DNA of 64,000 nucleotides from Thermoguttaceae bacterium (GCA_030530205.1 JAUMVK010000011.1:24887-88886); one strand, 5' to 3'; counted from the first letter of the stretch, positions 27,245 through 50,040 are shown. The notes: generated by a model from the letters alone, not told the origin. Program-made: numbers and translations.

Positions 27245-28051
27245 CTAAGATTTAATACATACACCAGATAGTAAGGCCAGTGTACAGTCATCCATCGTTT
27301 TCTGGAGGAAAACTTCTTCCAGCGCGGTCTGCAGAGCGTCTGAGACTTCGTTTGAGGCAGAATCATCGAGCCACGTCAGGATTTGAGCCACCGCAGGTGC
27401 TGTGCGCAATTCGGACGCCTGGATCAACGAGTTTTCCAGCCCGTCCGTGAAAAGGGCAAAAGATCGGACCGAGCAAGTATTTCGGATGATTTCGGTGTTT
27501 CGGGCCGCGTCTTTGTCTGTAACGAAGAAGGTCACGTTGGCGTAGTCCCCTTTTGCGGGGCAGGAAACGATAAACGGTCCGTTTTCACCAAGTCCAACGA
27601 TTCCGCCGTCGCCGATGTGGACAGCCAGCCAGCTTCCATCGAGGTGGAGCACTGCTGCCACAAGTGTGCAAGAGAAGGGTTTCAAATTTTGGGGACTGCT
27701 CTTCAGGCCTGCAAATTTGCGGATGCGGCGTTGAATGACAGAGATGAGACGTTTGGCAATTTCCTCACGCGAAACACCGGGGTACTGGATCCGATGGTAA
27801 TTCTCCAGAAGCCAGCGAGCAGCGGCTCGCGACGCGATTTTGGCGCCCAGGCTTCCGAACCGGCAGCTCCCTGCTCCGTCGCAGACAGCAACCGCTTCGA
27901 GAAAGACTTTTCCCTTCCAGTTCTTGAGCGTTTCGATGGCGTATGCGTCTTCGCAAAGCGTACCGTGCCTGCGGTGCGAACGGCCGGTCGCGCTGGCTGC
28001 CGCCGCTTTGATCTCTTCAATGTCAAATGGGTAGTTCATGATCGTGTGCAT
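27245..28051 (-). CDS. PP2C-family Ser/Thr phosphatase (TerY-P triad component)
   Basis: CEDAY, AVCDGAGS, HIGDGGIV and LFTDGL blocks are typical of PP2C_2. Third gene of the kinase-vWA-PP2C operon. Confidence 0.8.
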   Translation of the reverse strand: MHTIMNYPFDIEEIKAAAASATGRSHRRHGTLCEDAYAIETLKNWKGKVFLEAVAVCDGAGSCRFGSLGAKIASRAAARWLLENYHRIQYPGVSREEIAKRLISVIQRRIRKFAGLKSSPQNLKPFSCTLVAAVLHLDGSWLAVHIGDGGIVGLGENGPFIVSCPAKGDYANVTFFVTDKDAARNTEIIRNTCSVRSFALFTDGLENSLIQASELRTAPAVAQILTWLDDSASNEVSDALQTALEEVFLQKTMDDCTLALLSGVCIKS

Positions 28052-28131
28052 CGGGAATACGGTGGTCTGTGGGAGGGATTGGGCTGGGAACAGCGCCCCA
28101 GCCCGTGTGATCCGTTAAAGGGCTTCGGATT

Positions 28132-28818
28132 CTAAATCTGCCGCCACTTCTTCATCCCCTCCCAATCCCGCGGAACGTCTTCGCCCGGACGAGAGACCGA
28201 CACCCGAATGACCGAGGCGGAGAGCCACTGGAAGAACTCCTGGAAGCAGAGTCCGCGCAGACGCAGCGGAGTGCCTGTCGTAAACTTCTGCAACATTCTC
28301 ATGTCCGTATCGTTACCGATAGCGATGGGGTAAACGACCAGTTTTCCGGACCGTTCGAGTTCCCAGCAGCGCCGAGCGGCCTGGTCGGTCACCATGGACG
28401 ATTCACCGCACGGCTGACCATCCGTCATCAGGACGAGCCACGGCTGGTAGTAATCGACTCCGACCATCTTGAGGCATTTCTTTTGGCGTTCCAGCGTGTC
28501 GAGAGCCAGATTCACACCGGTTCCAAGGACGGTACAGCCACTGGCGCCTGGAATTTGCGGCGTCCGACGGCACGAGCCGATGGTCTTGAAGTCCTGAATG
28601 AGGTTGGCTTGTGAAGAGAATGTGACGATCGCTGCCTCGGCGCTCGACGAGGCGGTGCAATCCATCCGGACCGACTCGTAGAATTTGGTGATTCCACGAT
28701 TCAGCTCGTTCAGTTTTTCACCAGCCATCGAGCCGGAAGTGTCGAGGCAGAGGGTGATCGGGACGCGCGGCGCCGGGTTGTTGAGGAGATCGTCAAGTTT
28801 GATCCGAAGATTTGCCAT
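28132..28818 (-). CDS. vWA-domain protein, TerY-like
   Basis: The start MANLRI at 28818 follows an AGAGG RBS. MIDAS motif LCLDTSGSM. 228 aa. Confidence 0.8.
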   Translation of the reverse strand: MANLRIKLDDLLNNPAPRVPITLCLDTSGSMAGEKLNELNRGITKFYESVRMDCTASSSAEAAIVTFSSQANLIQDFKTIGSCRRTPQIPGASGCTVLGTGVNLALDTLERQKKCLKMVGVDYYQPWLVLMTDGQPCGESSMVTDQAARRCWELERSGKLVVYPIAIGNDTDMRMLQKFTTGTPLRLRGLCFQEFFQWLSASVIRVSVSRPGEDVPRDWEGMKKWRQI

Positions 28819-28927
28819 AATTAAACCTCTTTGAAAAAATGAAATGAAATGGGAAATGTTTTGACTTTTCGTTATTTTGCAGACGTGACGAATTAAAACC
28901 ATCACGTCTTGAGGACTGCGACATGAT

Positions 28928-30781
28928 TCAGGGATTCCATCCGAAGAGTCGGCCCAGGAAGGAAAAAATGTCTGGGGACTGATTCGGTTTTGTCTGTTTG
29001 GATTGTTTGGGTGGCGTGTAAACAGGAGCCTGAACATAAACTACTGACTGCTGAGGATTCACCGCTTGAGGGGTCCTTGTCACAGATATATCCATATTCA
29101 TCTTCGCCTCCAACGCTTCAAGGTGGGCCTCAAGGTCCGTTTTCCCGTCAGTGCGCAACTGGTTCATTGGATTGGTGTTGTTTTTGATCCGGCGGCGGTT
29201 GTGGGGGAAAATCATCAGATCAAAACCGTATTTTTGACTGGGGCCTACAAAGGTTTCACGAGGATCTTTAAGGATGGTACAGTAACGATTGAACAGCCGC
29301 TGCCAGTTTTTGATAGTTGTCCGCGGTTTCCCGAAACCGTCCTTGTGGAAACAGTTAAAAAAACTGTCTTTGATCGGTCGCGGAAGATGAGACCAGCAGT
29401 AACGCCATTTCCCCTCGGGAACGCAGTCGGAGTGCCTTTCGCCGAGAGCGTAAGGAAAATGTCCTTTACGGATGTTCTCATCCGGGGCGCCGCCGCCCTG
29501 GTGCGAGTACGGATGCTTGCCCGGCAGCATGATCATGAAAAGGAGGATAGCCACGGAAAAAAGCTCGTTTTCCATCGTGCGAAGCGTGCTTCCCAACTGG
29601 GTTCCGTGGAGTTCCGGCGCGGTATAGCTCGGTACTCCGACCGGGCACGGGAACCCTTCGACCTGGAAACTGTCGCAGTCCACGAACCAGACGGACGTTG
29701 GGCTTTCGACCAGGATGTTCGCGCTGTTGATGTCACCAATGAGGAGGTTCATGCGGTGTATGTACGAAATCTTTTCAAGGATCGTACAGCACAGCTGGGC
29801 TAATTGCAAACGAGTCCATTCCTTGTGCTGCTCGAGCCAGCCGGGACTCATCGCGGATTCCTGCAATTTGGCCCCTCTTGCTCCCCACATGAGAAAACCG
29901 CGGAATTGGTTCCGGGTGTCATAGACGGACTTGACCGGCAAACAAATTCCTTTCTCCCGCGGAACGGCATGGCTCGCAAGGAGTTCCACCTTGGCCTTGA
30001 GGCAGGTCGTCAGTTTCTCTGGATAATACACCTTGCAGACCATACCGGGGACGTTGGTCTTGTAAACGGCCCCTTCACCTCCCTTGCTGATCTCATCACC
30101 AAGGACAACATTCGGGCAGTTCAAATCGTGAGTATGAACGGTGCTCCCTCTACCTATGGATTCCGTGACCGGAATAGGCTCGGGATTTACCGCTTCCGGG
30201 GCGAGCGCGACGCTTTTCCGAAAGGGGGTTGGAAAGCTTTCCTTCTCGTTCCGGGTTTTCTGATCGCGTTTTGTGCCGGACGATTGTCTCATCTGATGGC
30301 GGCGAAGAAGAGTATGGTCTTTCAGTTCTCCCCCCTCCAGAGCCAGGACCGTGATCTTGTGGTTGTGATAGATCGATTTTTGAGACAGGATGTCATAAAG
30401 ATCTTCACCGAGGCCACGGTCGTTCGTGATAACAACGATGTCCTTCTCGGAGTGATATTTCTGAACCGCGGCCAGAATAACAGCATCGCTATGAGTGACC
30501 GTATTCAACGCAAGCTCGCAGAAATCCATAAGGCCTTGCGCTCTGAATCGCTTGACAAGCCTCAAACTATTGTGGGCGCTTGCCGCTTTTTTTGAAATCC
30601 GGGCCAGTTTCTGGAGTTCATCCCAGACCGTTTTCAGAAGGATGATGGGGTTGCCGCGGAGCAGAGGGCTCAACATGTTCATCATCTTTTCGAACTCATC
30701 ATCCATAACGACACAGGTGTCAATCAGAATGAGTCCTTTAGAAAAAAGGGCCGAAAAGTTCTGAGTCTTGTTGTTTTTCAT
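28928..30781 (-). CDS. Ser/Thr protein kinase (YegI-like) with N-terminal PIN-like domain
   Basis: The ATG at 30781 follows an AAGGAAG RBS. The N-terminal ~170 aa carry LIDTCVVMDD...VITNDRGL (PIN-like acidic residues). The kinase core carries GGEGAVYK, CKVY, IGDINSANILV, VDCDSF and YTAPE. Confidence 0.75.
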   Translation of the reverse strand: MKNNKTQNFSALFSKGLILIDTCVVMDDEFEKMMNMLSPLLRGNPIILLKTVWDELQKLARISKKAASAHNSLRLVKRFRAQGLMDFCELALNTVTHSDAVILAAVQKYHSEKDIVVITNDRGLGEDLYDILSQKSIYHNHKITVLALEGGELKDHTLLRRHQMRQSSGTKRDQKTRNEKESFPTPFRKSVALAPEAVNPEPIPVTESIGRGSTVHTHDLNCPNVVLGDEISKGGEGAVYKTNVPGMVCKVYYPEKLTTCLKAKVELLASHAVPREKGICLPVKSVYDTRNQFRGFLMWGARGAKLQESAMSPGWLEQHKEWTRLQLAQLCCTILEKISYIHRMNLLIGDINSANILVESPTSVWFVDCDSFQVEGFPCPVGVPSYTAPELHGTQLGSTLRTMENELFSVAILLFMIMLPGKHPYSHQGGGAPDENIRKGHFPYALGERHSDCVPEGKWRYCWSHLPRPIKDSFFNCFHKDGFGKPRTTIKNWQRLFNRYCTILKDPRETFVGPSQKYGFDLMIFPHNRRRIKNNTNPMNQLRTDGKTDLEAHLEALEAKMNMDISVTRTPQAVNPQQSVVYVQAPVYTPPKQSKQTKPNQSPDIFSFLGRLFGWNP

Positions 30782-31471
30782 TTTCGCTTCCTTGTTGTTA
30801 GGGGTTCGAATAACCATCTATCATAATAAACTCGCAAGTGTGGCATAATGACAAAAAATTTTTGAAATTCTTAAAAAATTTTTTTGTTGCTATACCGTTG
30901 GTTTTGTCTTCTGATAATAATAACCTTCCCAATGGGATGATCTTCCAGAAAAAATGTCAATTTTTAAGATTTTCTGTAAAAAAAGGCCCCACTTGGGAGA
31001 AGGGCGTGGTCCAAAAAAAAATTATTGAAGGTCGTGAAATTGTGTTCAGTAAGGGGCGTGACTCGTTGGATCCAAGCTCTCCTTCTTATGCCCCCCTTAG
31101 TTTTCTCGAGAGAAGGGTGTTTTGGTGGACACGGCAAACCCTGAGAATCTGTAAGGTTTCAGTATGGATAAAACTGTAAAGAATAATTAAAATCTGACAA
31201 ACCAATACGATTTTCTAAAAAATCGGGAAAGGCCTCCTCCGGACCCTTGCGACCCAAGAAAAAGCATCCGTTAGCCATTTTTTTGCCGTCCGCTAATGAG
31301 AGATACCTCATTAACTTTTCATACTATAATCCATTCCTTTCTGTTAGTCTGCACATTGGTCACAATTCGGGTTTACAGGAGACTTTTCTCAGGTTCTGAC
31401 CAAGCCGGTTTGCTCCGAAAGTCAGAACCTGGACCCATCTTGTCAATTCCGATCCGCAGGCCATGGTATTC

Positions 31472-33399: not shown

Positions 33400-33837
33400 T
33401 CACTCGAACTGATGGATCAATCCCGCGATCGCGTCGCCGCAGGCTTTATCCCGTTCCCGCACGAACCGCAGCGTCTTTTCCACCTCGGAGTGGTCGTAGA
33501 TCTGCGTGGTCTGCGTCGTCGAATGCCCCAGGGCGGTCGCGGCATCATCACGGCTCATCAGCAGGGAGAGGAAGGTTGCGGTCGCGTGTCGCAGCTGGTA
33601 CGGCGTCCACCCGGACCACGGTCCCGGCCGGAATTCGATCAACGGCTATGCTCCGGACCTGGCTATGCTTCGCATCCTCCCTGATCGCGATTTCCGCTTC
33701 CAGCATCCGCACGAGTTTTTCTTTTGCTTTTTCTTCGTCCCGGGCCAAATAGACTTTTTTCCGTCTTTGTAGCAAAAAAAGTCACCGTTGGCGCCTTTTT
33801 TAATGACCGGCAATTCAGATTTTTTTCTTTTCGGCAT
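33400..33837 (-). pseudogene. Tyrosine recombinase (phage integrase), frameshifted and internally deleted
   Basis: The C-terminal frame has YQLRHATATF...LGHSTTQTTQIYDH (R-H-...-Y catalytic region). The N-terminal MPKRKKSELPVI.. segment is in another frame. The total is far shorter than a functional integrase. Confidence 0.75.
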
Positions 33838-36471: not shown

Positions 36472-37728
36472 TTATAAATCACGTACGATTTTCCACGTTC
36501 CGTATTTTCTGGCCCCGACTCTTTCGATGATTCCATCCATCTGCAGTTGCTTCAGATACCTTAAAATAGTGGATCGTCCGAGTTCCATCGACTTCATCAA
36601 TTCGTCTATTGTGATGGCTGGATTATCTCGCAATCTTGCAAGTATTTCTTGCATGATTTTAGTCTTTTTAGTATCATTTTGAGACTCTTTAGTATCATTT
36701 TCTTTGCTGCATTCCGTCAGCAATCCTGTCGGCCTTATATTGCTTTCTAAAGAATCATATTCCATTTTCAGTTCCCGTAGCAATTCTTCTTCCGTGGGGA
36801 GATACAGCTTGTATTTGGAGGCGAAAATCTGATTCTCTTTTTCCGAAAGGGTGTATTGAACCAGTGAATCACTTTTGTTGGCACACAAGACAATGCCGAT
36901 TGGCGGATTGTCACCCGGGTTCATTAGCTCGCATTCGTAATAATGGACATACATCTGCATTTGTCCCAGGTCCTGATGAGTCAAATCCCCGACTTTCAGG
37001 TCAATTAACACAAAGCATTTCAGAATGTAATTGTAAAAGACCAGGTCGATCCGAAAATGCCTTCCGTCAAACGTAAAACGTTTTTGCCGGGCTACAAACG
37101 AGAAGCCACGGCCAAGCTCAAGCAGAAATTTTTGCAGGTGCGTAATCAAAGCCTGTTCCAGATCGCTTTCATAAAAATCGTCGTTCGGATTCAAACCAAG
37201 AAATTCCAGAACATAAGGGTCCCGGATTACATCGGATGGAGTTTGGCCAGGTTCAAGTTTTTGGATCTCTGCCGCCACCCCTTTTTTGTCTCGACTGGAA
37301 AGAAGCCGTTCGTAGAAAAAAGAGTCGATCTGTCGGGCCAGTTGACGAACACTCCAGCGGGATTTAATGGCTTCTGTGGTATAAAACTGGCGGGCTTTTT
37401 CACTATCAACCTGAATCAGGAGTCTATAATGTGACCAACTCAGATCTTTAGAGAGTTCAAGGAAATTGGGAAATGCGAGGTAAAACTGCCGCATATATTT
37501 GAGGTTCGTTGCGGTAAATCCTTTTCCAAAGTCATTAGTCAGTCTTTCCGCCAGTTCCTGAATAAGTTACTTGCCGTACTCGTTGCGTTCTGCTCCCCCT
37601 TGTTCCGCAACGATCATTTTCCCGATGTTCCAATATGCTTCCACCATCATGAAATTCACGCTATAGTACACTTTTGACCGAGCCTCGGTCAAGATTTGCA
37701 GGATTTGGTTGTAAAAATTCTCATTCAT
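36472..37728 (-). pseudogene. DUF1016 (YhcG-like PD-(D/E)xK nuclease) with C-terminal wHTH; premature TAA at codon 54
   Basis: The reading frame runs from the ATG at 37728 and is interrupted by an in-frame TAA (37569..37567). Downstream are IDLVFY...LIDLKVG (D...D.K) and a C-terminal ITIDELMKSMELGRSTILRYLKQL HTH. The 36472..37494 part could still be expressed from an internal Met. Confidence 0.7.
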
Positions 37729-38135: not shown

Positions 38136-39074
38136 TCAAAGTTTCCAGATTTCTTCACATTTTGAAACATAATCCTCAAACAATTTCAAATCAAACGAAC
38201 GAACTGGCTTCTCTTGTAGATGTTTTTTTAATTTGATAAATATATCTTTATGATCCATCTTGTCTTGATTTCCAGAATCCGGCTTCAAATATCTGGTAAT
38301 ATCGGAGAATGCTTCCTGTCCTAAAAAATCTACAATCTTGTAAACCTCTTGTAAGCCAGAAGAAGATGAAGACGGAACATACAACTCACAAATACTGTTT
38401 TGAATTGAGGAATGAAAAAGATCTTCGTTTTGATGCCACTTGAGTTTATAACGACTAATAAATGTTTGGATTTTAGGATCAAACCTGATAAATGGAAAGG
38501 GAGTCTGAGATGCGAGTTCAACAACATCACCCATGCCAGCTCCATAAAAACCGTAAGTCAATTCACTACCTAAACCAATAGAAATTGCCCCATGTAAATA
38601 GATTCCCATACTGAATAGTTGGAAACAAGACGCGATACACGCCTGTATCATTACAAATAGTGGTATGACACTTATTGTTTGGCAGCAAAAATGCTCTCTT
38701 GGATTATAGAGTCTGCAATAAAATAAGAGAGAATGTCCCAGTATTTGAACTTCAAGTTTGTTTGTTGCCTGGAAGCAATTATAATCCTGGAAAATTTGTT
38801 CAAAACAAGTTATTGTAAATTCGATGCGTGTTCGCATTTCAGCATATTGAGGGCTTAGTTTTTTCATAAGAGCATTAGATGGAATTCGATAATCAATTTC
38901 TTCATTACAAAGATCTTCAATTTCCAAATAGCAAAGTACAAACATTCCAGGTTCGGAAGAAAGTGTTTTTTTGACTCTAAAATGGAAAATTTCAGGAATT
39001 ACGGGAAGAAGTCCTTTTGATTCTCCAAGTGTATTTTCTTCAAGGATTCTATTTATAAGTTGATCCTTGTTCAT
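38136..39074 (-). CDS. Hypothetical; degenerate paralog of the upstream palm-cyclase-like protein
   Basis: Aligns with 39074..40018 (GIYLHGAISIGLG vs GIFFRGGISLGRG; VVELASQ vs ACELEES; KIVDFLGQEA vs YVVDTFGEAS). The acidic positions are changed (YLEIEDL, GHSLLFY). The start overlaps the upstream stop (TAATG). Confidence 0.6.
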   Translation of the reverse strand: MNKDQLINRILEENTLGESKGLLPVIPEIFHFRVKKTLSSEPGMFVLCYLEIEDLCNEEIDYRIPSNALMKKLSPQYAEMRTRIEFTITCFEQIFQDYNCFQATNKLEVQILGHSLLFYCRLYNPREHFCCQTISVIPLFVMIQACIASCFQLFSMGIYLHGAISIGLGSELTYGFYGAGMGDVVELASQTPFPFIRFDPKIQTFISRYKLKWHQNEDLFHSSIQNSICELYVPSSSSSGLQEVYKIVDFLGQEAFSDITRYLKPDSGNQDKMDHKDIFIKLKKHLQEKPVRSFDLKLFEDYVSKCEEIWKL

Positions 39075-40018
39075 TATTTACTCCTGGCTTGAACTGTTTT
39101 TTTTAAGTCAATATACTTTTGTTGAATATGGGGCTTATTTTGGAATTCTTGGATTTTTTGATCTGCTATTTTGAGTATTTTCAGACATTTTTGTTCAAAA
39201 TAACCAGGACTGTATTTTTCTAATAGAGTTTTTGAGGCCTCTCCAAAAGTATCCACCACATATATGCTAGGATCATTTTCATCTTTTTTAAGTATTCTGA
39301 AATTATTGTAAACGGAGTTTTGTATTATGGAGTCAAAATCTATTTCATGTAGTCGTTGAGCAGGTAGAACAATTCTGAATGATTTTGCTTTACTCTCTTC
39401 TAATTCACAAGCTTCATAAACAGGATAGGCATACAAGTTTCCTGTAAGAATCCTCATTCCACGCCCTAAACTTATACCACCGCGAAAAAAAATACCTTCG
39501 GAAAAGAACTCCAACATCGCATGTACACATATAATTAACATTATTTCAACGCTTGTTAATAATAGATTGTCAGCACATGCTACTTGAGTATATATCATAA
39601 TCGAATCTGAAAAGATTTCGGAATGAACTGGATATAGATATTCAAGACGTTGAGTGTTACCAAGTAATGGGAATAATTCTAGTATTTTCTGCTTGCTTTC
39701 AATCAGTTTGTTAATGTGATCAACAAAAAATGTTCTAAACTTATCAATTGTTCTGAGTATCTCCTGTTGTTTCTGTATTGCTCGAAAAATAGATCCATTT
39801 TCGACTGACTGTTGGATATCACTCAGTTTGTCTTTTTGACCAATTAAGTCAATGAAACACACAAGATAAAGCGGCAAGTAATTTTCCTGATTTCTCTGAA
39901 CAAGAAATTCCAGTAATTCCTGTAATTGAGACTCGTCAAGTTTTTTTAATCCTTGAAAACTTTCTGGTTCATTATGGAATGATGTATTCACATCAGTTTT
40001 AATGTGGATAATTGACAC
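39074..40018 (-). CDS. Hypothetical; nucleotide-cyclase/GGDEF/Cas10-palm-like protein (inferred)
   Basis: A GTG start at 40018 lies 5 nt after GGAGGA and 25 nt after the helicase stop. The motif order CFIDLIGQK ... IFSDSIMIY ... FFRGGISLGRG ... YPVYEACELEESKA parallels FxDxxGFT / GDxxM / RxGxHxG / VNxAARLE of palm-domain cyclases. Confidence 0.35.
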   Translation of the reverse strand: MSIIHIKTDVNTSFHNEPESFQGLKKLDESQLQELLEFLVQRNQENYLPLYLVCFIDLIGQKDKLSDIQQSVENGSIFRAIQKQQEILRTIDKFRTFFVDHINKLIESKQKILELFPLLGNTQRLEYLYPVHSEIFSDSIMIYTQVACADNLLLTSVEIMLIICVHAMLEFFSEGIFFRGGISLGRGMRILTGNLYAYPVYEACELEESKAKSFRIVLPAQRLHEIDFDSIIQNSVYNNFRILKKDENDPSIYVVDTFGEASKTLLEKYSPGYFEQKCLKILKIADQKIQEFQNKPHIQQKYIDLKKTVQARSK

Positions 40019-40043
40019 ATTTGTCCTCCAATGTGGAAAGTGT

Positions 40044-42158
40044 TTATTTAAGGAATTCAGATGGCGTGCCAAAACTTGTGATCCACGCCGCTTTTTGCGC
40101 TCGGGTGAGGGCAACATATAGAAGACACTTTTCCGACGTAGTTGTTTCTAGGCGCGTCTGTTCATCCGTTCGGTCGATGGATGCTGGAAGAGGAATCGTA
40201 CCATGGTTGACTGCCGCGACGAATACGTACTGGAATTCGAGACCTTTTACCCGGTGCATGGTGGCAATCCGAAGACCATCCGTGGAACGATCGTCGCTTT
40301 GTGTGCCCGTGATTTCAAAGGTTGGAATTCCGCTTTCTGAGAAACGTCTGGAGTATTCCTCAAGAAGTTTGTGCGTTCTCGCAACCAGGCAAATGTTTTC
40401 CAGTGCCACGTCCTCTTCGGTCAGATTCAGGATTTCTGTCAGGAGAAATTGAAATTCATCATCCGGGTTTTCAAACGTTTGTATCTTTGGCGGATTGCCG
40501 TGCATTAATGATTTACAACGATCACCAGGGTCGAGAGCTTCGTCCAGATCGTCAAAATCAACACCTTGAAGAAGCGCGAAAGCGAACTTTCTCGTTTCTT
40601 CGGTCGTTCTGTAATTGATTCTCAAAGTGCTTGATCTTCCACGAATAGCGACTCCGCAGGAAGAAAGAACCGCGTGGTTTCTGTATATTCGCTGATGAGA
40701 ATCCCCGACGATGAACAAATCGTTTTCATGTTCCCCGCCCGCCAAAGCTCGCAGAAGCCGGAAAGCGTTCGGGCTGAAATCCTGTCCTTCATCTACAATG
40801 ACATGTTTGTATTTTACAGAATTCAAACCGTTCTCGACCATCACCCGACAATCGGCCATGGCGGTATGAATGTCACGCACATTTTGTTCCTGCGTGAGTC
40901 TTTGGTAGGCATCGAAAACTTTCCAAACGTCTTTACGGCGGCTTTGAGTCAAGCCCGTCCCACGGCCAGAACGGTTAGCCGCGAGGTATTTTTCAAGAGT
41001 AAAAGCTTCCTGGGACGCAGCAACACGTGCCCATTCTTCCTTGAAAAACACCTTCGGAAGTTTCAGCTCCGCCGGTTTTTCCTTGCAGGCTTCGTTCCAG
41101 ATTTCTTTCATAGTTTCGTCTTCATAGTGAACCTCCGCCCCGTAATTTTGCGAGGCGAGAAACTCCCGCACCCACGCGTCCAGATTGACGACTTCAATCC
41201 GGGCAAATTCTTCCGGAGAACAAATTTTACGGAGATTCTCGCGAATGTCCGAGGCAAGATTGGCGGTAAAAGTAGCAAAAAGGATCTTGCCGGAAGTCAA
41301 TTTCGAGGCCAGAAATTTGGCGCGATGAAGGGCCACGACGGTTTTCCCGGTCCCGGCTCCTCCAAGTACACGGGCGGGGCCGGAGAACGTTTTCTCCATG
41401 ATTTTACGCTGGGTCGGATGCAAAAAAACACGCCATTTCTCGAGCGGCTCGGAGAGAATTTTGCGAAGTTCCTCCTCGCCATCCACGACGACGAACGACC
41501 TCGTGTTTTGTGGGCTCTCCAAGGCCTCGGCAAATGATTCCGCCGCAGGTTTGGGGCCACGATCCGCCGCAGCAAGTTCCAAAACTTCCGCTACAGGCAG
41601 ACCGTCCGCGAGGTAGGACAGATATTCGTACGCGTCACTTGGAAAAATCTTTGAGGCGGCTTTAAACTCATCATCCGAGACGATTTTTCTCACGAGAATG
41701 ATCTGCTCAGAAGGTACGCCGAGAGTCAAAAGATCGGCATCGCTTACGTTCTGGAAAAGACGGTAAGGGACGGCATAACCCGCATATTGGGGGACCAAGT
41801 CTTCTTTTTCCCCCTGTTCGACCTCGTAAACCTGAATGCTTCCCGAATAGGCATTGACCGCGCATCGCCGCCGGCAGGCCCATTCGTATGCCTCGTCGTG
41901 ATGGTCGATCCAGAGCAGAAGATACGTCCCGCTTTCCTCCTCACGTGCGAGAATCCCCCGGTATGTGTCATCGATCCGGATCGAACAGAGCCGTTTGTCC
42001 GCGGCATTGGTGATTTTCTCATAGTTCATCCCCGGCGTTTTGGGATTTTTCTGAAACTTATCGATGAAATCCGTGACTTTCCCCTGTATTTTCCTTGGCA
42101 GCTGCGCAAAGGCAGAGAGAAAGTCGGTGGACATCGCGATTTTGGGTTTGGTGGTCAT
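40044..42158 (-). CDS. SF1 UvrD/Rep-family helicase with N-terminal RelE/ParE-like domain
   Basis: GGAGTGKT Walker A, VIVDEGQDF Walker B, ATMHRVKGLEFQYVF and LLYVALTRA C-terminal motifs. The N-terminal ~95 aa (LPRKIQGKVTDFIDKFQKNP..PG..YEKI....RLCSIRIDDTYRGIL....G.YLLLWIDHHDEAY) follow the RelE/ParE toxin pattern. Confidence 0.8.
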   Translation of the reverse strand: MTTKPKIAMSTDFLSAFAQLPRKIQGKVTDFIDKFQKNPKTPGMNYEKITNAADKRLCSIRIDDTYRGILAREEESGTYLLLWIDHHDEAYEWACRRRCAVNAYSGSIQVYEVEQGEKEDLVPQYAGYAVPYRLFQNVSDADLLTLGVPSEQIILVRKIVSDDEFKAASKIFPSDAYEYLSYLADGLPVAEVLELAAADRGPKPAAESFAEALESPQNTRSFVVVDGEEELRKILSEPLEKWRVFLHPTQRKIMEKTFSGPARVLGGAGTGKTVVALHRAKFLASKLTSGKILFATFTANLASDIRENLRKICSPEEFARIEVVNLDAWVREFLASQNYGAEVHYEDETMKEIWNEACKEKPAELKLPKVFFKEEWARVAASQEAFTLEKYLAANRSGRGTGLTQSRRKDVWKVFDAYQRLTQEQNVRDIHTAMADCRVMVENGLNSVKYKHVIVDEGQDFSPNAFRLLRALAGGEHENDLFIVGDSHQRIYRNHAVLSSCGVAIRGRSSTLRINYRTTEETRKFAFALLQGVDFDDLDEALDPGDRCKSLMHGNPPKIQTFENPDDEFQFLLTEILNLTEEDVALENICLVARTHKLLEEYSRRFSESGIPTFEITGTQSDDRSTDGLRIATMHRVKGLEFQYVFVAAVNHGTIPLPASIDRTDEQTRLETTTSEKCLLYVALTRAQKAAWITSFGTPSEFLK

Positions 42159-42397: not shown

Positions 42398-43714
42398 ATG
42401 AGACTTTTGCATACCTCAGACTGGCATCTTGATGCCAAACTTGAACAGCTTTCCCGCAGCGATGAACAGCAAAAATTTCTCAATTGGCTGCGTGGAACGA
42501 TTTTGGAAAAACAGATCGATGTATTACTCGTCGCAGGGGACATTTTTGATTCCGGAAATCCGAGTAACAGTTCCCAGCTGCGATACAACCAGTTTTTACG
42601 TGAACTCTACCTGGACGCGAAAAGTGGAAAATCCGTCTGCAAAACCATAATCATCACGGCCGGGAATCACGACTCGCCCTCCTTGCTGAATGTTTCCGGC
42701 CCTTTCATGGAGCTTCTGGGGATGCACGTCGTGACTCAACCAACAGAAAATCTGCGTGAAATGATCATTCCTGTTCTTAATTCGGACGGGCAGACAGAAG
42801 CACTGATCGCAGCGGTTCCGTTTTTACGCGGGCGTGATCTGGTACCCTACATCGAACGCACTGAAGAATTGGAACTGGCCCAACAGATTCTGAATGGGAT
42901 GCAGACCTTCTACCGGATAATTACGGATGAGGCCCTGAAAATGCGCAGCGAAATCCTTGAGGAAGAGTCCCAGTCAAATTCAACACGAAATCCGAAACCC
43001 CGTTTGGAGTCCAGGATTCCGATTATCGCGACGGGGCATTTGTTCACGGCCCATGGTTCGACGCTTGACGGAGACGGCGTTCTGAATCATCGCGGGACAC
43101 TCGACCAATTCCCGGCTTCAGGTTTTCCCCCGGAGCTTTCCTACATTGCACTCGGTCATCTGCATCAGCCCCAGAGAGTCGATGGAAAGGAATACATTCG
43201 TTATTCTGGTGCCCCAATCACGATGAATTTCAGCGAGGCGGGCATTTCCAAACAGGTTCTGCTCGTTGAAACTGAAGCGGATTCTGAAGTCCGTGTAACG
43301 CCCATTCCCGTGCCAACTTTTCAGCGTCTCGAAGTGCTAAAGGGGGATTTTTCTGAAATCGAGTCTTCCGCCAAAGAATTGCCGGCAGAAGAACCTCAGA
43401 TTTGGATAAAAGCCGTTTTTACGGGAGAAACTTATGAGCTCTCCCTGCGCGACCAAATCGAGGAACTGTTTCAAACTCTGCCACATTTACAGCTCGTCAG
43501 TTTCGAGAACCAGACGGCCCATTCCAAACGTGTGCTGGATGAAATTTCCCAGCATGAGGATTTGCTCACCATGAAACCCCAGGAACTCTTTGATCGCTTT
43601 CTCGCGATGGTTCATTCCAGACTGGCAGACAGTGAAAAGCAGGATTTGAACAGACTGTTTGAGGAACTATTGGTGCAGTATGAAAATCGGCAAATCGAGG
43701 ATGGAATCGAATAA
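42398..43714 (+). CDS. sbcD: Exonuclease SbcD (Mre11-family nuclease)
   Basis: MRLLHTSDWHLD, LLVAGDIFD, ITAGNHD and GHLH phosphoesterase motifs. Confidence 0.9.
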   Translation: MRLLHTSDWHLDAKLEQLSRSDEQQKFLNWLRGTILEKQIDVLLVAGDIFDSGNPSNSSQLRYNQFLRELYLDAKSGKSVCKTIIITAGNHDSPSLLNVSGPFMELLGMHVVTQPTENLREMIIPVLNSDGQTEALIAAVPFLRGRDLVPYIERTEELELAQQILNGMQTFYRIITDEALKMRSEILEEESQSNSTRNPKPRLESRIPIIATGHLFTAHGSTLDGDGVLNHRGTLDQFPASGFPPELSYIALGHLHQPQRVDGKEYIRYSGAPITMNFSEAGISKQVLLVETEADSEVRVTPIPVPTFQRLEVLKGDFSEIESSAKELPAEEPQIWIKAVFTGETYELSLRDQIEELFQTLPHLQLVSFENQTAHSKRVLDEISQHEDLLTMKPQELFDRFLAMVHSRLADSEKQDLNRLFEELLVQYENRQIEDGIE

Positions 43715-43750
43715 TCCGGGAACACGAATTCATTAGAAAAAGGCACGCAA

Positions 43751-46700
43751 ATGTTTATCGAAAAAATCCATCTTGAAAATCTGGCCTCGCTTAAAGGGGT
43801 TTGGAACATCGACTTTACGAATCCGCAATATGATTCCGGAATATTCGCGATCACGGGCACGAATGGAGCCGGGAAAAGTACCATTCTGGATGCCGTCTGC
43901 CTCGCGCTTTATGGAAGAACGCCCCGACAGGAATCCTTTAGCAGGGAAACCGATGAAATCATGACGAAAAGTTCGGCTTCATGCTGTGCGGAGGTGACTT
44001 TCCGGACCGCCAAAGGACGTTTTACGGCCAAATGGGGGCACAAGAGAACACGGTCTGGTTCAAAAACCCCTTTTTCTCCACCAACGCATGAGTTTTCGGA
44101 GGAAGGCGGAGAAATTTTCCTCAAGCCAAGTGAAGCAAAAGAAAAAATCGAAGAATCGGTAGGTTTGAAATTCGATCAGTTTGTTCAGTCCGCGATGCTT
44201 GCGCAGTTCCAGTTTGAAAGATTTCTGAATTCCCAGACCAAGGAAAGAACCGAGATGCTGGAAACCTTGACCGGAACGCGGTACTTCAAAGAAATTGTAG
44301 ATTTTGCTCAAAAGCTGCGAAAGGAAAAAGGCAATGCCGTAGAAATTTTAAAATCGAAGGAAGGCGGAATGGGGATGGATCTGCTTTCGGAGGAAGAACT
44401 TCGGCAAAAAAAGTCTGATCTTGAGCAAAAAAAACAATCCTCCAAGGAACTGGAATGCCAAATTGCCGCGCTTCAAAAAGAACTGAACCAGTCAGAAGCC
44501 TGGAATCAGCTCCAAAAAAAACTCCACAAAGACGAGCAGGATCAGGAATCCCTGAATTTGTGTTTTGAGAAATTCATCCCACAGCGGCAGAAAATGGAAA
44601 AGGGATTAAAAGCAAAAAAAATTCAGTCCAAAGAAAAAGAACGAAGTTCCATTTTGGAAAAAACGGAGCAAAATCAGAAAAATCTGGAGGAACTGCAAAC
44701 TCAAAAGAATGATTTGGATGCCAAACTGAGTCACCTGGAAGAAGAAATCCGAAAAAAAGACGCCGCCTTGCAGGAAGCTAAAAATGAACTCGAAACGGTG
44801 ATGCCGGTTTTAACCCAGGTGCGGAATCTCGATGCTTTTTTGGCTGAAATTGATCAGGAATGCAAGAGACTGCGTCAAAAGTGGGAGGAACAGAGGAATT
44901 TATGTACTTCTGAGGAATCAAAACTGGCAGAGATTTCCCAAAAAACGGCTCAATCCCAACCAATATGGGTTCAACTCCTGAATCAGCTCCCGGAAAAAGT
45001 ACGCGATTCGCAGAACGTAAGCACTGGGACGCACCCAATTCTGGAAGATTATTCCAGTCTGAAAAGTTCTGGCAGGGATATCATTGGAAAGCTTGCGGAT
45101 TGCACACGGCTGGAAGGTGAATTGAAGAAACTCCAGAATCAAAAAGCCCAGCTGGAAGCGGACCTGAAGCAAAAATCGACGGTTTTTCAGGATGCTTGTA
45201 CAGCCACCGGAAAAAAGCGAGAGGATCTTCAGAAAATTGAACTCGTGTTCAAGGAATTACAGGAAAAGAAAGAGAAAAACGAAACGCAGAATAAAACGGA
45301 TTGGAATTGCCGCCAACTCCTTAAGGAAATCGATTCCATAAAACAGAACTCGGAAGAACGACGGAAGAAAATGCTCGAATGTCGGGAGGCAGGACTTCAA
45401 AACCGGCAAAAAGACGAGGAACTCAAACAGGAATTCACCGAAATTTCAGGAGAACTGGAAAAGATTTGTTCCCGAATGGAAGAGTTACGAGCCATTCTTG
45501 AAGGGGTTCATCGAATCAGGAACTACGAAGAAGCCCGAAAAATGCTTCACGATGGAACTCCGTGTCCCTTGTGTGGGGCGCTGCACCATCCTTACGCAGA
45601 ACATAATCCTAAAGATGGGACGTTTGAAGAGTCTGAGCTAGAAAAATTGGGAAATCAAAGAAAAAAGTTGGAGGCCAAACAAACAGAAATCGAAAAAAAG
45701 AGAAGTGAACACTCAAAGAAAATGCTGCGTGATGAACTTGAACTGAAAAATCTCGAAAATACTGAAAAAGAAGATCAAAAAAAGTTTGCAGAGAATTTGA
45801 GTCATCTTGAAAAACTCCGTTCGGATATTCCGGAGAATCTGGCCCAAAAAGATTCTGATGTTTTCCTGGAAACCATCAGAACCGCATTGGATTTGCGCGA
45901 TGCCGAATCGGAAGCGCTTACTCGTCAGTACAATGCAGCCGCGGAACAAAAGAAAAAGCTGGAAAACGAGTGGAAGTCTTTGGAAAACGAGCAGCACAAA
46001 ACGGAAGCGGAATTAAACGACTGTAAACTGAATCATTCCAGATGTGACTCGACAATTCAGGCCAAAAAAGAAGATTTAGACCGTCTGGACACGGAATTGG
46101 CAAAACTGGAACCTCCACTTTGGGAGTCTGTTTTGCCGTATATTTCCGAATTTCTTCCCGGTCCTGCCTGGGATCAGGAGTCGATGTACACGGAACGTTT
46201 GGCTTGGTGGAAAAAAACAGACGAATGTCTGGAAAATATGTACCGGACATGGACTGGAATTCACACCGAATACCAAAAGCGCCTCGAATTGCAAAGGGAT
46301 GAGATCCTTGCGAAAGACCACTTGGCAGCGGCTCAAAAATCTGAACGGGAAACAAGAGAAGATCTGGATGGGAAGCGCGCGAACTACGAATCCAAAGAGA
46401 AAGAACGTAAATCAAAGCTTCAGGATCGTGACCCGGAAAAGGTGGAGGACGAACTTCAAAAAAACAAGAAGAACGCTCAAGAGATGCTTGCCAAAGCCCA
46501 AAAAGAAAAACAGGACCTTGATAAAAAGCAGGCTGGACTCAACGCAACGATCGGACAAACTCAAAAAAACCTGGCTTCCGATCTCGCCCAAAAAAATCGG
46601 ATCGAGACTGAATTTCAGGCAATTCTTCAAGCGGAAGGCTTTGCAGATGAGGAAGATTATTACCGTTCACAACTCAGTGACTCTGAACTTGAAGAGTTGG

Positions 46701-47533
46701 AACAGACGGCCAGGCAACTCGATAAAAAGAAGGACGAACTGGCTGGGATCAGACGTCGGCATGCTGAGGAACTCGCGGCTTTTAACGGGCAAGCCCCTTC
46801 GGAAAAGTCTCTGGAAACTCTTCAGGAAGAACAGAACGCCGTGAAACAGTTGCGGGAATCGCTTCTTTCTGAAATCGGTGGTCTTGAAAATGAAATCCAA
46901 AACCAGGAGAAGCGCCAGAAAGACCTCGGTAAATTACGTCAGCAAATCGCTGAGGCCGAGCAGGAAGTTCGAAAGTGGGAAAAACTCACCAATATACTTG
47001 GAAATACCCAAAATTCAAGATCAAACGCCTTTGTAAACTTCGTTCAGGGGTTTACGTTCAAGAACCTTCTTTTCTACGCGAATCAGCATCTCAAAATGCT
47101 GAATCCCCGCTATGCTTTGCAAACGAAAACGGAAGACCCCACGAGTCTCCAAATCCTCGACGAGAGTCACGATAATGCTCCCCGTTCTCCCGAAAGTCTT
47201 TCCGGGGGTGAGGTTTTTACCATCAGCCTTGCATTGGCCCTCGGTCTGACTCGCATCGCAAGCCGTGGGAAGAATGTCGAAATCAACTCGTTTTTCATTG
47301 ATGAAGGTTTTGGCTCGCTTGCTCAGGATTCCCTCCTGAACGCTTTGCAGGTTCTGGAAAAATATCAGATGGAGTCTCGAAAAACGGGCAAAAAACTGAT
47401 TGGAATTATTTCCCATGTCGAAACCATCCGCAATGAGCTTGAAACGCTGATTCAGCTTACGCCTTATGCGCCTCATCAATTCAGTCGAATTTCAGGTCCG
47501 GGAGTGGAGGGATCAACTGGAAATAATTCTTGA
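43751..47533 (+). CDS. sbcC: Exonuclease SbcC (Rad50/SMC-like ATPase)
   Basis: N-terminal ITGTNGAGKSTILDA Walker A. Very long coiled coil with a CPLCGALHHP zinc hook. C-terminal LSGGEVFTISLALAL signature and FFIDEGFGSL Walker B. Confidence 0.9.
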   Translation: MFIEKIHLENLASLKGVWNIDFTNPQYDSGIFAITGTNGAGKSTILDAVCLALYGRTPRQESFSRETDEIMTKSSASCCAEVTFRTAKGRFTAKWGHKRTRSGSKTPFSPPTHEFSEEGGEIFLKPSEAKEKIEESVGLKFDQFVQSAMLAQFQFERFLNSQTKERTEMLETLTGTRYFKEIVDFAQKLRKEKGNAVEILKSKEGGMGMDLLSEEELRQKKSDLEQKKQSSKELECQIAALQKELNQSEAWNQLQKKLHKDEQDQESLNLCFEKFIPQRQKMEKGLKAKKIQSKEKERSSILEKTEQNQKNLEELQTQKNDLDAKLSHLEEEIRKKDAALQEAKNELETVMPVLTQVRNLDAFLAEIDQECKRLRQKWEEQRNLCTSEESKLAEISQKTAQSQPIWVQLLNQLPEKVRDSQNVSTGTHPILEDYSSLKSSGRDIIGKLADCTRLEGELKKLQNQKAQLEADLKQKSTVFQDACTATGKKREDLQKIELVFKELQEKKEKNETQNKTDWNCRQLLKEIDSIKQNSEERRKKMLECREAGLQNRQKDEELKQEFTEISGELEKICSRMEELRAILEGVHRIRNYEEARKMLHDGTPCPLCGALHHPYAEHNPKDGTFEESELEKLGNQRKKLEAKQTEIEKKRSEHSKKMLRDELELKNLENTEKEDQKKFAENLSHLEKLRSDIPENLAQKDSDVFLETIRTALDLRDAESEALTRQYNAAAEQKKKLENEWKSLENEQHKTEAELNDCKLNHSRCDSTIQAKKEDLDRLDTELAKLEPPLWESVLPYISEFLPGPAWDQESMYTERLAWWKKTDECLENMYRTWTGIHTEYQKRLELQRDEILAKDHLAAAQKSERETREDLDGKRANYESKEKERKSKLQDRDPEKVEDELQKNKKNAQEMLAKAQKEKQDLDKKQAGLNATIGQTQKNLASDLAQKNRIETEFQAILQAEGFADEEDYYRSQLSDSELEELEQTARQLDKKKDELAGIRRRHAEELAAFNGQAPSEKSLETLQEEQNAVKQLRESLLSEIGGLENEIQNQEKRQKDLGKLRQQIAEAEQEVRKWEKLTNILGNTQNSRSNAFVNFVQGFTFKNLLFYANQHLKMLNPRYALQTKTEDPTSLQILDESHDNAPRSPESLSGGEVFTISLALALGLTRIASRGKNVEINSFFIDEGFGSLAQDSLLNALQVLEKYQMESRKTGKKLIGIISHVETIRNELETLIQLTPYAPHQFSRISGPGVEGSTGNNS

Positions 47534-47652: not shown

Positions 47653-47826
47653 ATAAAGTAAAATCATTTTTTTGTGAAAATTTTTTCATAAAACCAGAAT
47701 TTTTATGGAAAATTTTAACACTTATTCGTTATAATATATAGAATCCTTCTTGAAATTTTGCGAAACAAAAGTTATCGATTTCACGTTTATATTCCCAATG
47801 ATCCATTGTTTGAAAGGAATGATTTC

Positions 47827-50037
47827 ATGGCTTCATTTTTCAAAAAACTGATTACCAAGAAAAGCTTCGCGTGGCTTTTTCCTCTCGTACTTTTGGTTTT
47901 CGCGTTCCTGCTGTGGCAGGTCGGAATGAAAGCGCTTACTTCCAAAGAAGTCTCCGGGATGGAGTCTCAAGTTCGGGATATTCTCAAAGATTGCCCACCC
48001 GAAATCACCACGAAGATTTTGGAACGTTTTCCAAACCATGATTTGGCCCTGGCCGCGACACTTCAGGAGCGCAAGCAACTTGGGACCGATGGCTTGGCCC
48101 GGCTTGCCGATTCCACTCAGGCGGCTCTGGATCATGAAATGTCCGTTCTGGCTGCAAATCCCGAGATGTTGGCCGCCAACATGGAGGATCAGCGAGATGC
48201 GTTTTTAACCGTTCACTGCCTTACGATGGACCTGAACTCCCAAACCGCAGAGAAGTCCGGGAATTCTGACCTTATTGCGGCTTCGCAAGCGATGAACGCC
48301 GAGTATCTCTCGGTTCTTCAGGATGCCTCGAAAAAACCGGATCTGTGGGTTAAAGTGCGTGAAAATCCGATGTTCGCGTTCCTGCTTATCCAGCAGAAAC
48401 GTGATCTCCGTGAGCACCCGGAACGGAACGATTGGGCTGACCTGCTGAAGTTTTATGATGAAGAGGCTGAATGGCTGGATGACGTTTTGGTTAGCCTTAC
48501 GCTTGCCTCGCAAGGGATCCTTAATGAGAACATGGACGACAGTGAAAACCTCAGTCTGGAAGTTTATGACATTCTGAAAACGATCAAGAAAAACCAGCCC
48601 TACTTCAAAGAAGTCGCGAACGCTTATCTTTCGGACCCGGAATGCGACGTGGAAGAAGGAGCCGCGATTGTGTATGTCATCTTCCAGAATTTCGGCGGTG
48701 CGATTCGTGAATGTGTTCGGTCACAAACGTGCGATACGCTGGAAACGTTTGAAGTCATTTTTGCCAATCAACAATGGTTTATGGAGAATGCATTAAACTC
48801 TTTGGACACCGCCAACAAAGCATTGGCCGAAAAGCTCAAAAGCTGGAAGCGCAACATGCCGAACGCGTGGAAGGTGTGCTCCGTCGTGCCTTTCACGGTG
48901 AATCTGATGAGCGACTTGCCGGATTTGGCGGATTCTCTTTCGGAGAAGTATGCCGCGGACGATTTGCCCACACTTCTTTATACCTTCTACCCGGATGAAG
49001 TGGCGCAGGCCGCTGCGTGTATCGATAAATTTGGCGATTTGGCTCTTTACGAACTGAATTTCTATAAAAATTCGGAACTATTTCACAAGCATCTCGCCAA
49101 TAACTCTATCGGTCCGAGAATTATTCCTTATGTGGCTCGTTTCGAGGACAAAGGATTGGATGATTTATCCAAAAACCTTGAATGGCTGAATAAGTATTTT
49201 GACAAAGACGGAAATCCCATTAAGGATGAATGGTGGGTGAGCTTTCCTGGCGGTGGCGCGATTAAAGTCGTAAAAAACAAGCTGGAAGGAAAGCCAAGCA
49301 CTTGGGGCGAACTTGGGTGGGCAGCTCTTGACGTCGCGGATGCTGGTCTGCTCGTTTTGTCATTTGGAACCAGCGGAGTGGTAACGGAATCCGGAAAAAC
49401 CGCTGTGAAATCCGGGGCAAAAGCCATCGTTGAAGCAGGCACGAAGGCGACCATCAAAACCGGGGCGAAACGAGAACTTCGCAAAACTTTTTTGAAACAG
49501 GCATTTAAAAAGAATTTGGCCAAAATCAGCAAATCAACTGTGGGGAAACTTGCCGTTCGCAGCTGGCGTTTCGTATGTGGTGTTGGAGGGCGAATCACCA
49601 TGATTGCGGTCAGGGTTGCCAAGATAACCAAACAGATTTTTACAATTTCATTCAACGCGATCCGGAATACTTATCGAATTGCTCGTGGTGCGTGGCTCAG
49701 TGTTCCGGCAAATGTCCGCAAGGGGGTATACCGCTCGCTTCTGGCGGTTTCGGTAGGCTATACTATCCTTTTCAAGACGATGCCGGCATTGCCCGACCTG
49801 ATGGAAAAAACTGGCGAGTTTATCGGTAAGATTCCGGCCCAGATCGCTCAAACCGTCGCTGATTCTACGGGTGCGGTTCTCGCGGGAGTCATCAATGGAC
49901 TGCTCGGAATCGATTCTCCCAGCCCCAGGAAGTTTTTAACAGTTTTTCTTTCCTTCCTTGGCGCGATCGTACTCCTGGTTTTTTCCGGATTTTTTACCTA
50001 CAAAAATTATTACTCACAAGCTGGTATAAGGGCTTAA
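47827..50037 (+). CDS. Large membrane protein, no recognised domain (operon gene 1)
   Basis: ATG at 47827. N-terminal TM helix (FAWLFPLVLLVFAFLLW), about 480 aa helical soluble region, a Lys/Ala-rich amphipathic segment, and C-terminal TM helices (LLAVSVGYTILF, FLTVFLSFLGAIVLLVFSGFF). Confidence 0.6.
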   Translation: MASFFKKLITKKSFAWLFPLVLLVFAFLLWQVGMKALTSKEVSGMESQVRDILKDCPPEITTKILERFPNHDLALAATLQERKQLGTDGLARLADSTQAALDHEMSVLAANPEMLAANMEDQRDAFLTVHCLTMDLNSQTAEKSGNSDLIAASQAMNAEYLSVLQDASKKPDLWVKVRENPMFAFLLIQQKRDLREHPERNDWADLLKFYDEEAEWLDDVLVSLTLASQGILNENMDDSENLSLEVYDILKTIKKNQPYFKEVANAYLSDPECDVEEGAAIVYVIFQNFGGAIRECVRSQTCDTLETFEVIFANQQWFMENALNSLDTANKALAEKLKSWKRNMPNAWKVCSVVPFTVNLMSDLPDLADSLSEKYAADDLPTLLYTFYPDEVAQAAACIDKFGDLALYELNFYKNSELFHKHLANNSIGPRIIPYVARFEDKGLDDLSKNLEWLNKYFDKDGNPIKDEWWVSFPGGGAIKVVKNKLEGKPSTWGELGWAALDVADAGLLVLSFGTSGVVTESGKTAVKSGAKAIVEAGTKATIKTGAKRELRKTFLKQAFKKNLAKISKSTVGKLAVRSWRFVCGVGGRITMIAVRVAKITKQIFTISFNAIRNTYRIARGAWLSVPANVRKGVYRSLLAVSVGYTILFKTMPALPDLMEKTGEFIGKIPAQIAQTVADSTGAVLAGVINGLLGIDSPSPRKFLTVFLSFLGAIVLLVFSGFFTYKNYYSQAGIRA

Positions 50038-50040
50038 ACA

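Follow-up and report, generated by a model that had tools for sequence, protein, structure and literature searches.

Class III nucleotidyl cyclases have, to our knowledge, been recognised in phage immunity only since Pycsar, in which the class III pyrimidine cyclase PycC is paired with a transmembrane or TIR effector activated by cCMP or cUMP. Among small nucleotide enzymes with a palm fold, mCpol/OptS of Panoptes, Cas10 and GGDEF proteins also serve in immunity, and in the C1/C2 pair of mammalian adenylyl cyclase the Asp-less subunit provides a conserved Lys, Asp, Asn and Arg. UvrD helicases have been combined with toxin modules in type II Gabija (GajB-GajC) and in DarHTG, which gives a precedent for UvrD recruitment to varied effectors (PMC13069673). 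According to the two ARMADA preprints, type II ARMADA, from OI-172 of E. coli O157:H7, is a validated anti-phage system in which protection requires all four genes, ArmD being essential only alongside its partners (PMC12458937; 10.1101/2025.09.22.677730). In the system ArmA (a BrxHII-like helicase), ArmB (a PglX-like methyltransferase) and ArmC (a YprA-like giant helicase) are placed, in a strict order, upstream of ArmD, which carries a RelE-like domain (PMC12458937). In this study, a stretch of 64,000 nucleotides from a Thermoguttaceae bacterium (GCA_030530205.1 JAUMVK010000011.1:24887-88886; hereafter the window) was found to encode, on its minus strand, three co-directional open reading frames (ORFs): a helicase related to ArmD and two smaller genes, here called gene 2 and gene 3. 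A plausible reading is that they form a three-gene defence-island operon, in which an ArmD-type helicase without its ARMADA partners is joined to two paralogs with a class III cyclase fold.

The tight linkage of the three genes, described in an earlier note made from the sequence alone, was reproduced in every particular. The helicase ends with TAA at 40046-40044, and the 25-nt gap that follows holds no promoter-like or terminator-like site, only a Shine-Dalgarno GGAGGA with a 5-nt spacer before an in-frame GTG (40018-40016) that gives gene 2 a length of 314 aa; the stop of gene 2 and the start of gene 3 overlap as TAATG, and no terminator-like site was predicted between the genes. The longest gene 2 ORF (347 aa) begins at an ATG inside the helicase, which it overlaps; this is not the likely start, and gene finders on related contigs also give 314 aa. 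The small genes are AT-rich, as the note had said, and genes 2 and 3 have a computed GC content of 0.32-0.34, where the helicase has 0.50-0.53 and the genome around it ~0.58.

The helicase matched Pfam UvrD-helicase (2.5e-26) and UvrD_C (2.6e-23) and keeps the motifs GGAGTGKT, VDEGQD, GDSHQRIY and VALTRA intact, in agreement with its first description as a clear superfamily 1 (SF1) UvrD/Rep enzyme; the PADLOC models GajB and RTasHel (reverse transcriptase-associated helicase) matched it at ~1e-30. Residues 6-92 matched the RelE-like toxin family phrog_1213 (E = 1.8e-6), and the N-terminus also gave weak matches to Pfam Gp49 and NCBIfam Txe/YoeB. When ARMADA II was located in E. coli O157:H7 Sakai, its ArmD proved to be ECs_5264, a protein of 704 aa to which the window helicase, likewise of 704 aa, is 43% identical over residues 1-703. 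Judged by this alignment, the helicase is a full-length ArmD homolog, and the helicase part of the operon is thus already known. ArmA, ArmB and ArmC were not found in the window, where the upstream neighbours of the helicase are divergently oriented SbcD and SbcC. Only two window ORFs exceed 900 aa, namely the SbcC-like ORF, which gave generic SMC/Rad50-type ATPase matches only, and a 934-aa ORF without a PADLOC match at 1e-5.

A scan of GTDB genomes recovered 44 helicase-related loci, most of them encoding a full-length protein of the same architecture at 31-58% identity. At no fewer than 17 of these (that is, at least 17 of 44), the start of the helicase abuts the stop of a giant protein with DEAD, Helicase_C and MZB/DUF1998 domains; these ArmC-like proteins are cut by the edge of the locus, mostly with more than 1,960 aa visible, and the one that was scanned matched DruE models at 5e-96. 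This gene order agrees with the one reported for type II ARMADA. The closer relatives of the window helicase (46-58% identity) directly follow such ArmC-like giant helicases of YprA/DruE type. Further partner sets consist of a type III methyltransferase with GmrSD, or of an LmuB-like protein with a methyltransferase and DUF429, and because partner sets vary among loci the ArmD-type helicase appears to behave as a reusable module. At one ArmD-like locus (L016) homologs of ZacA and ZacB (Azaca) lie downstream of the helicase, and others carry WYL and GmrSD-type genes, defence systems being densely packed around the helicase.

Genes 2 and 3 had no match in Pfam, NCBIfam or PADLOC, and gene 2 matched phrog_23933, of unknown function, at 2e-8. 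Searches of PDB with phmmer and two profiles, and of phage and plasmid records with tblastn, gave nothing meaningful for either gene. Word-indexed searches of 5.8 billion protein clusters returned only two close relatives per gene, even with a 36-sequence profile; a full HMMER scan of 1.84 billion representatives brought up 34 proteins (E < 1e-3), among them some closely related to genes 2 and 3 themselves, and a scan of JGI metagenomes with two peptide patterns yielded at least 202 relatives, from which 80 loci (414 kb) were kept for the metagenomic neighbourhood analyses. A hidden Markov model (HMM) of 100 unrelated or distant family members recovered gene 2 at 2e-36 and gene 3 at 2e-14, and it matched no other window ORF when 334 ORFs of the window and of a related contig, L001, were searched. 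The two small proteins align with each other, as had been noticed at the outset (BLASTP E = 1e-8, 19% identity over 250 aa), and by these comparisons they are real, if distant, paralogs of one unannotated family. Scans of IMG/VR with two alignments gave no family relatives; the family is thus far not demonstrably phage-borne, despite phrog_23933 and one prophage context.

The fold of gene 2 was approached by structure prediction. The single-sequence AlphaFold model reached a predicted local distance difference test (pLDDT) of 40, and the 36-sequence alignment was needed for a confident model (pLDDT 85.6, predicted template modelling score 0.81), whose elements follow the order beta-alpha-alpha-beta-beta-alpha-beta. 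The top 45 Foldseek matches in PDB were all class III adenylyl, guanylyl or uridylyl cyclases, with a probability of 0.63-1.00 (at least 0.82 for the first 44) and a target-normalised TM-score of 0.16-0.57; they include CyaC (1wc4), the Anabaena uridylate cyclase 8jsz as the second-best match, soluble guanylyl cyclase (sGC), transmembrane adenylyl cyclase (tmAC), soluble adenylyl cyclase and Rv1900c. Cas10, as chains of type III effector complexes, and mCpol came no higher than rank 47 (E of 0.18 or more, probability of 0.28 or less), the 50 listed PDB matches included no diguanylate cyclase, and a library of viral structures gave giant-virus guanylate cyclase domains, its sole GGDEF-type protein being at E = 1.3. 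The model thus points to a fold that is specifically that of a class III cyclase. The earlier note had called a palm domain by eye within a group that also took in GGDEF, Cas10 and mCpol: the palm was returned by the model and narrows to the class III cyclases, the two metal-binding Asp for which the note had asked (D57 and D138) are invariant in the family, and the likeness to Cas10 and mCpol is insignificant. The motifs on which that call had been made (CFIDLIGQK, IFSDSIMIY, FFRGGISLGRG and one more) are present and lie on the most conserved columns of the family.

For comparison at the profile level, the reference alignment was made up of ten genuine cyclase domains that a probe consensus had picked out of plasmids. 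The family aligned with them collinearly, with FSD opposite GD, RGGI-IG opposite RiGihtG and YGPxLxxAYxLES opposite GdtVNxAaRlE; the hhalign P value was 0.042 with 36 sequences and 0.0064 with 100 sequences, and 0.31 in a reversed control. No Pfam model (PF00211 included) or NCBIfam model matched either small gene, nor did one match any of 36 relatives. The fold call is therefore one supported by predicted structure and, more weakly, by sequence profiles.

The conserved residues of the family, like the fold, are solid. In gene 2 numbering, D57, D138, R179, E207 and R215 are invariant in 102 relatives (D57 in 98/98 and D138 in 100/100 of those ungapped there), Q61, S137, G185, Y196 and G197 are near-invariant, and D246, D249 and D256 are conserved in 85-91% of members. 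Gene 2 retains D57, Q61, S137-D138, R179, E207 and R215, all invariant residues among them. D138 aligns with the cyclase GD in the profile-profile comparison, and D57 and D138 are the counterparts of the metal-binding Asp pair of class III cyclases, which lies in FxDxxG of beta1 and in the GD between beta2 and beta3. In the hhalign register the transition-state Asn and Arg of the GdtVNxAsRxE helix fall at family positions 201 and 205, which are variable and occupied in gene 2 by Tyr and Glu. Gene 3 tells a different story in the 104-sequence alignment, where D57 is replaced by E, S137-D138 by G-H, R179 by H and E207 by A, and R215 is lost, substitutions that are common to its orthologs P0003 and P0004. 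With every invariant catalytic residue gone from gene 3, the gene pair appears to consist of an active-type copy and a degenerate one rather than of two cyclases of equal standing; of the two palm-cyclase-like paralogs first proposed, gene 2 is of the active type and gene 3 lacks all five invariant residues.

A similar pairing was found within a single protein. P0022, a metagenomic protein, joins two family domains in tandem within 607 aa and mirrors the order of gene 2 and gene 3; the first domain is intact (DVLGQ, FSDS, RGA), and the second aligns with the family model only from the R179 region on and, as the alignment reads, lacks both Asp motifs. Since the active and degenerate pairing recurs in P0022, analogy suggests that genes 2 and 3 may form a head-to-tail pseudo-heterodimer of the C1/C2 kind.

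From this arrangement we infer a coupling, a chemistry and a role in defence. The products of genes 2 and 3 would pair head-to-tail around one competent nucleoside triphosphate (NTP)-binding site, with gene 2 as the catalytic and gene 3 as a regulatory or scaffold subunit, and the cyclase-fold enzyme would be switched on through protein contacts. Its NTP-consuming output might be a nucleotide messenger or plain NTP depletion, and would arrest the infected cell, possibly via the RelE-like RNase domain of the helicase itself. The reaction may be other than canonical 3',5'-cNMP cyclisation because the conserved cyclase Asn and Arg are missing. A more far-reaching version, in which the family consists of widespread minimal immune enzymes whose modified active site, with the Asp pair and Arg retained but family-specific residues in place of the transition-state Asn and Arg, makes a non-canonical product, and in which, at this locus, the helicase senses phage DNA and gates the pseudo-heterodimer, whose product then acts on the RelE-like RNase domain, so that three genes would provide sensor, synthase and effector, is in our estimate unlikely.

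The linkage between the helicase and the pair was followed across lineages. The trio is present in two related lineages, the window type (contigs L002-L006) and L001, which differ by a synonymous divergence (dS) of 0.3-0.7 and by rearranged flanks, SbcCD lying divergently upstream in the window and a DO-GTPase system co-directionally upstream in L001. Comparison of the window with L001 shows purifying selection on each of the three genes, the ratio of nonsynonymous to synonymous divergence (dN/dS) being 0.07 for the helicase (0.04 for the RelE-like domain alone) and 0.42 and 0.28 for genes 2 and 3, respectively. In L001 a CAG-to-TAG change puts an in-frame stop into the linker that follows the RelE-like domain and divides the helicase into a 135-aa RelE-like ORF and a 561-aa helicase ORF, both strongly conserved (dN/dS of 0.04 and 0.07); a natural split, read-through and an assembly error are all conceivable.

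The strongest alternative is that an orphan ArmD-like helicase, either left over from ARMADA or a stand-alone factor, and a self-contained gene 2/gene 3 unit are independent neighbours in a defence island, co-inherited by descent and not acting together. Several observations weigh against a coupled system and speak for this one. The GC content steps sharply from 0.50 to 0.32 at the junction of helicase and gene 2, a step that shows the two parts to be of separate origin; their evolutionary rates are also strongly unequal. Among the 5.8 billion protein clusters the trio was seen only in the window lineage and L001. A cyclase-fold gene was present in none of the 44 ArmD-like loci, and a UvrD-like ORF in none of the 80 metagenomic family loci and none of L007-L012, and nothing of the UvrD family appears in the gene tables of L067-L070. 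The earlier note had staked its proposal on homologs being linked to such a helicase, and at 0 of 90 other family loci examined was this the case, so that the coupling of sensing to signal synthesis stands as a hypothesis. The family is otherwise nearly always single-copy with heterogeneous, unrelated neighbours, and for that reason its members can evidently work alone, to judge from their gene neighbourhoods. Two further points weigh against the coupled system only: no recognisable nucleotide-binding effector is present in the operon, and the transition-state Asn and Arg are not conserved in the family, whose chemistry may thus not be that of a cyclase.

Against independence stand the short gap with nothing in it but a Shine-Dalgarno, the survival of the block through rearrangement of both flanks, and the strong constraint on a helicase which in ARMADA needs its partners and which is here kept without them. 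Weighing both sides, we favour functional coupling of helicase and pair over simple adjacency, with a confidence that the neighbourhood survey has brought to somewhat below an even chance; simple adjacency we regard as a serious but lesser possibility. SbcCD was considered as a component of the system and rejected, since it is absent from the L001 locus.

The surroundings of the relatives bear on what the pair itself may do. One family member lies in a prophage context with capsid and portal genes, others adjoin Fic and AbiE, another HEPN-type and insertion sequence (IS) genes, and one directly follows a PLD-SNF2 (restriction-type) helicase and an Eco57I/MmeI-type methyltransferase. In L070 a TIR protein of Cap12/PycTIR type (197 aa; PF10137 2.7e-33; PDB Cap12 1.6e-7) is followed, 100 nt downstream, by the family member P0020, a Pycsar-like layout, and in L071 and L136 two members, ~32% identical, each adjoin a homologous K+-channel-pore (Ion_trans_2) protein, downstream in one case and upstream in the other; in these channel-type neighbours the pore was the only domain recognised, with no sign of one that binds cyclic nucleotides. 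Many other solo members sit among housekeeping genes. No recurrent partner emerged, as BLAST clustering of the immediate neighbours in the 80 loci gave only same-contig duplicates and 83 singletons, and a Pfam scan of 89 neighbours found no family in more than two loci. The distribution is consistent with a solo gene that is mobile, associated with conflict and now and then accompanied by effector-like partners, and the TIR and channel neighbours are hints that some relatives may signal to effectors. In L112, and also in L113 and L124, a convergent neighbour of 304 aa gave a weak family HMM match (~1e-6) and has motifs nearer to canonical class III cyclases (FFDVLGFE, AARMEHS, GQPLIDAARMEHS); as a sequence bridge to those cyclases it was rejected, there being no PDB cyclase match.

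These neighbourhoods also bear on a further explanation, that the cyclase-fold pair is the effector itself, acting once activated through ATP/GTP depletion or, by a different nucleotidyl-transfer reaction, through a toxic or linear nucleotide product with no receptor, and that the solo members are likewise single-gene abortive-infection factors. Such an enzyme would suit an operon that lacks an effector gene, a family whose members mostly stand alone beside unrelated genes, at times in the prophage and defence settings just listed, and an active site that seems modified, the canonical Asn and Arg not being conserved and R215, D246, D249 and D256 being the family's own. The few TIR and channel neighbours resembling Pycsar-style effectors, however, argue for a receptor, and the many members among housekeeping genes are not what a constitutively dangerous enzyme would lead one to expect, so that we consider this explanation quite improbable. 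That the family is not enzymatic at all, its members being palm-fold adaptors that bind nucleotides or nucleic acid and the operon an ordinary helicase with two accessory binding proteins, would account for the conservation of gene 3 without catalytic residues and for the lack of any sequence-level match to a cyclase model, but is very improbable given that D57, D138 and R179, invariant across the relatives and all kept by gene 2, make up a two-metal nucleotidyl-transfer signature.

Table 1. Positions of the operon, its parts and the other features discussed; positions in the window are counted from its first nucleotide.
Feature	Sequence	Position	Strand	Remark or basis
Helicase, gene 2 and gene 3	window	38136-42158	-	three co-directional ORFs
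ArmD-like helicase	window	40044..42158	-	704 aa; RelE-like N-terminus, linker or middle region, SF1A UvrD/GajB-like core
RelE-like domain, helicase aa 6-92	window	41883..42143	-	phrog_1213 match
SF1 helicase core, aa 245-704	window	40047..41426	-	Walker A/B, GDSHQRIY, VALTRA
Walker A GGAGTGKT of helicase	window	41340-41363	-	
Walker B VDEGQD of helicase	window	40779-40796	-	
Shine-Dalgarno GGAGGA of gene 2	window	40024..40029	-	direct sequence reading; 5 nt before GTG
Gene 2	window	39074..40018	-	314 aa; predicted class III cyclase fold, catalytic-type copy (model, family HMM, residue conservation)
Gene 2 codon D57	window	39848-39850	-	
Gene 2 codons S137-D138	window	39605-39610	-	
Gene 2 codon R179	window	39482-39484	-	
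Gene 3	window	38136..39074	-	312 aa; apparent degenerate paralog of gene 2 (BLASTP, family HMM, 104-sequence alignment)
Low-GC island	window	roughly 22000-54000		
PP2C phosphatase, VWA-domain protein, 629-aa protein	window	27245-30817	-	
Recombinase-like ORF	window	33400-33642	-	80 aa
YhcG/DUF1016 nuclease	window	36472-37494	-	340 aa
SbcD and SbcC-like ATPase	window	42398-47533	+	438 aa and 1260 aa
GTPase-centred conflict system	window	47758-53201	+	
Split helicase	L001	7634-9748		
ZacA and ZacB homologs	L016	5032-8092		downstream of ArmD-like helicase
P0020 and TIR protein	L070	208-1777		
Family member with K+-channel-pore neighbour	L071	7085-7771		
Family member with K+-channel-pore neighbour	L136	59-967		
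304-aa neighbour	L112	3510-4424	-	weak family HMM match

The operon lies within a low-GC island that holds several other genes of interest. The SbcD and SbcC-like genes, at a GC content of 0.43-0.49, are present in the same-lineage contigs L002 and L003 and absent from L001, and are thus not obligatory to the trio. Beyond them lies a GTPase-centred conflict system of a 759-aa protein, a 649-aa DO-GTPase2 and a 409-aa GAP1-N2, for which there is no PADLOC model; a homologous DO-GTPase trio in L001 is the one found directly upstream of, and co-directional with, the helicase operon. On the other side of the operon is a YhcG/DUF1016 PDDEXK nuclease with a C-terminal winged-helix, matched by the PADLOC candidate PDC-S02 at 2e-116, whose window copy is shorter than those in L003 and L004 (418-423 aa) and may be N-terminally truncated or have another start. 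Farther out, an ORF resembling the C-terminal end of a tyrosine recombinase (RHATAT...GHSTTQTTQIYDH) may be a remnant that marks a mobile-element boundary of the island, and the same island also has a gene cluster for a PP2C phosphatase, a protein with a VWA domain and one of 629 aa that gave a weak protein-kinase match.

What is real and new at this locus is that a helicase of known kind stands together with a cyclase-fold family not described before. No UvrD and cyclase defence pair was found in the literature searched, the helicase and cyclase-fold arrangement was not found described in the two ARMADA preprints as far as they were searched (PMC12458937; 10.1101/2025.09.22.677730), and neither the family nor its active and degenerate pairing behind an ArmD-type helicase is described in the libraries and literature searched. 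If the coupled operon proves true, the family would be a second, sequence-invisible cyclase branch of phage immunity, and its invariant Asp pair with differing transition-state residues might carry out new nucleotide chemistry. The locus would further imply that ArmD is separable from ArmA-C and can be re-partnered, offering a simpler three-gene system in which to pursue questions of RelE-helicase sensing, and the active and degenerate pair would be a bacterial analogue of the C1/C2 pseudo-heterodimer. If mere adjacency is true, the value of the locus reduces to the annotation of a new family.

The helicase and cyclase-like pair had at first been recognised as no named defence system, and this stands for Gabija and Pycsar, whose partners differ, but not for the helicase, which is a homolog of the ArmD of ARMADA II. 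Gabija likewise joins a GajB-like UvrD helicase to a non-helicase partner in a defence island; that partner is here a nucleotidyl-cyclase fold, and no GajA (OLD/TOPRIM) model matched among the neighbouring proteins scanned, and a MazF-like partner is likewise missing. The solo family members resemble the minimal stand-alone palm enzymes of Panoptes (mCpol/OptS), Cas10 and GGDEF type, whereas structural matches of gene 2 to mCpol and Cas10 are insignificant (E > 0.1, probability < 0.3). Pycsar is approached by the class III cyclase fold, with a uridylate cyclase so close to the top of the structural matches, by the defence-island setting and by the one relative beside a Cap12/PycTIR-type protein; it differs in that no PycC, Guanylate_cyc or PADLOC model matched genes 2 and 3, no PycC was found among 36 relatives (E < 0.1), the transition-state Asn and Arg are not conserved, and the operon has, in place of a transmembrane, TIR or cNMP-binding effector, a helicase and a degenerate paralog. 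Mammalian adenylyl cyclase C1/C2 and the alpha/beta subunits of sGC offer the nearest likeness for the pair, as they too are two paralogous units with the Asp pair kept in one, as sGC and tmAC chains stand near the top of the structural matches of gene 2, and as a fused active and diverged relative exists; gene 3 differs from the Asp-less subunit of C1/C2 in retaining none of the invariant polar residues of its family, and the heterodimer is here a proposed one. For the helicase the nearest likeness is ARMADA II, whose ArmD has the same RelE-like domain, the same GajB-like UvrD core and the same length, with identity running from end to end; in the window, by contrast, ArmA-C are lacking and the helicase has two cyclase-fold genes behind it.

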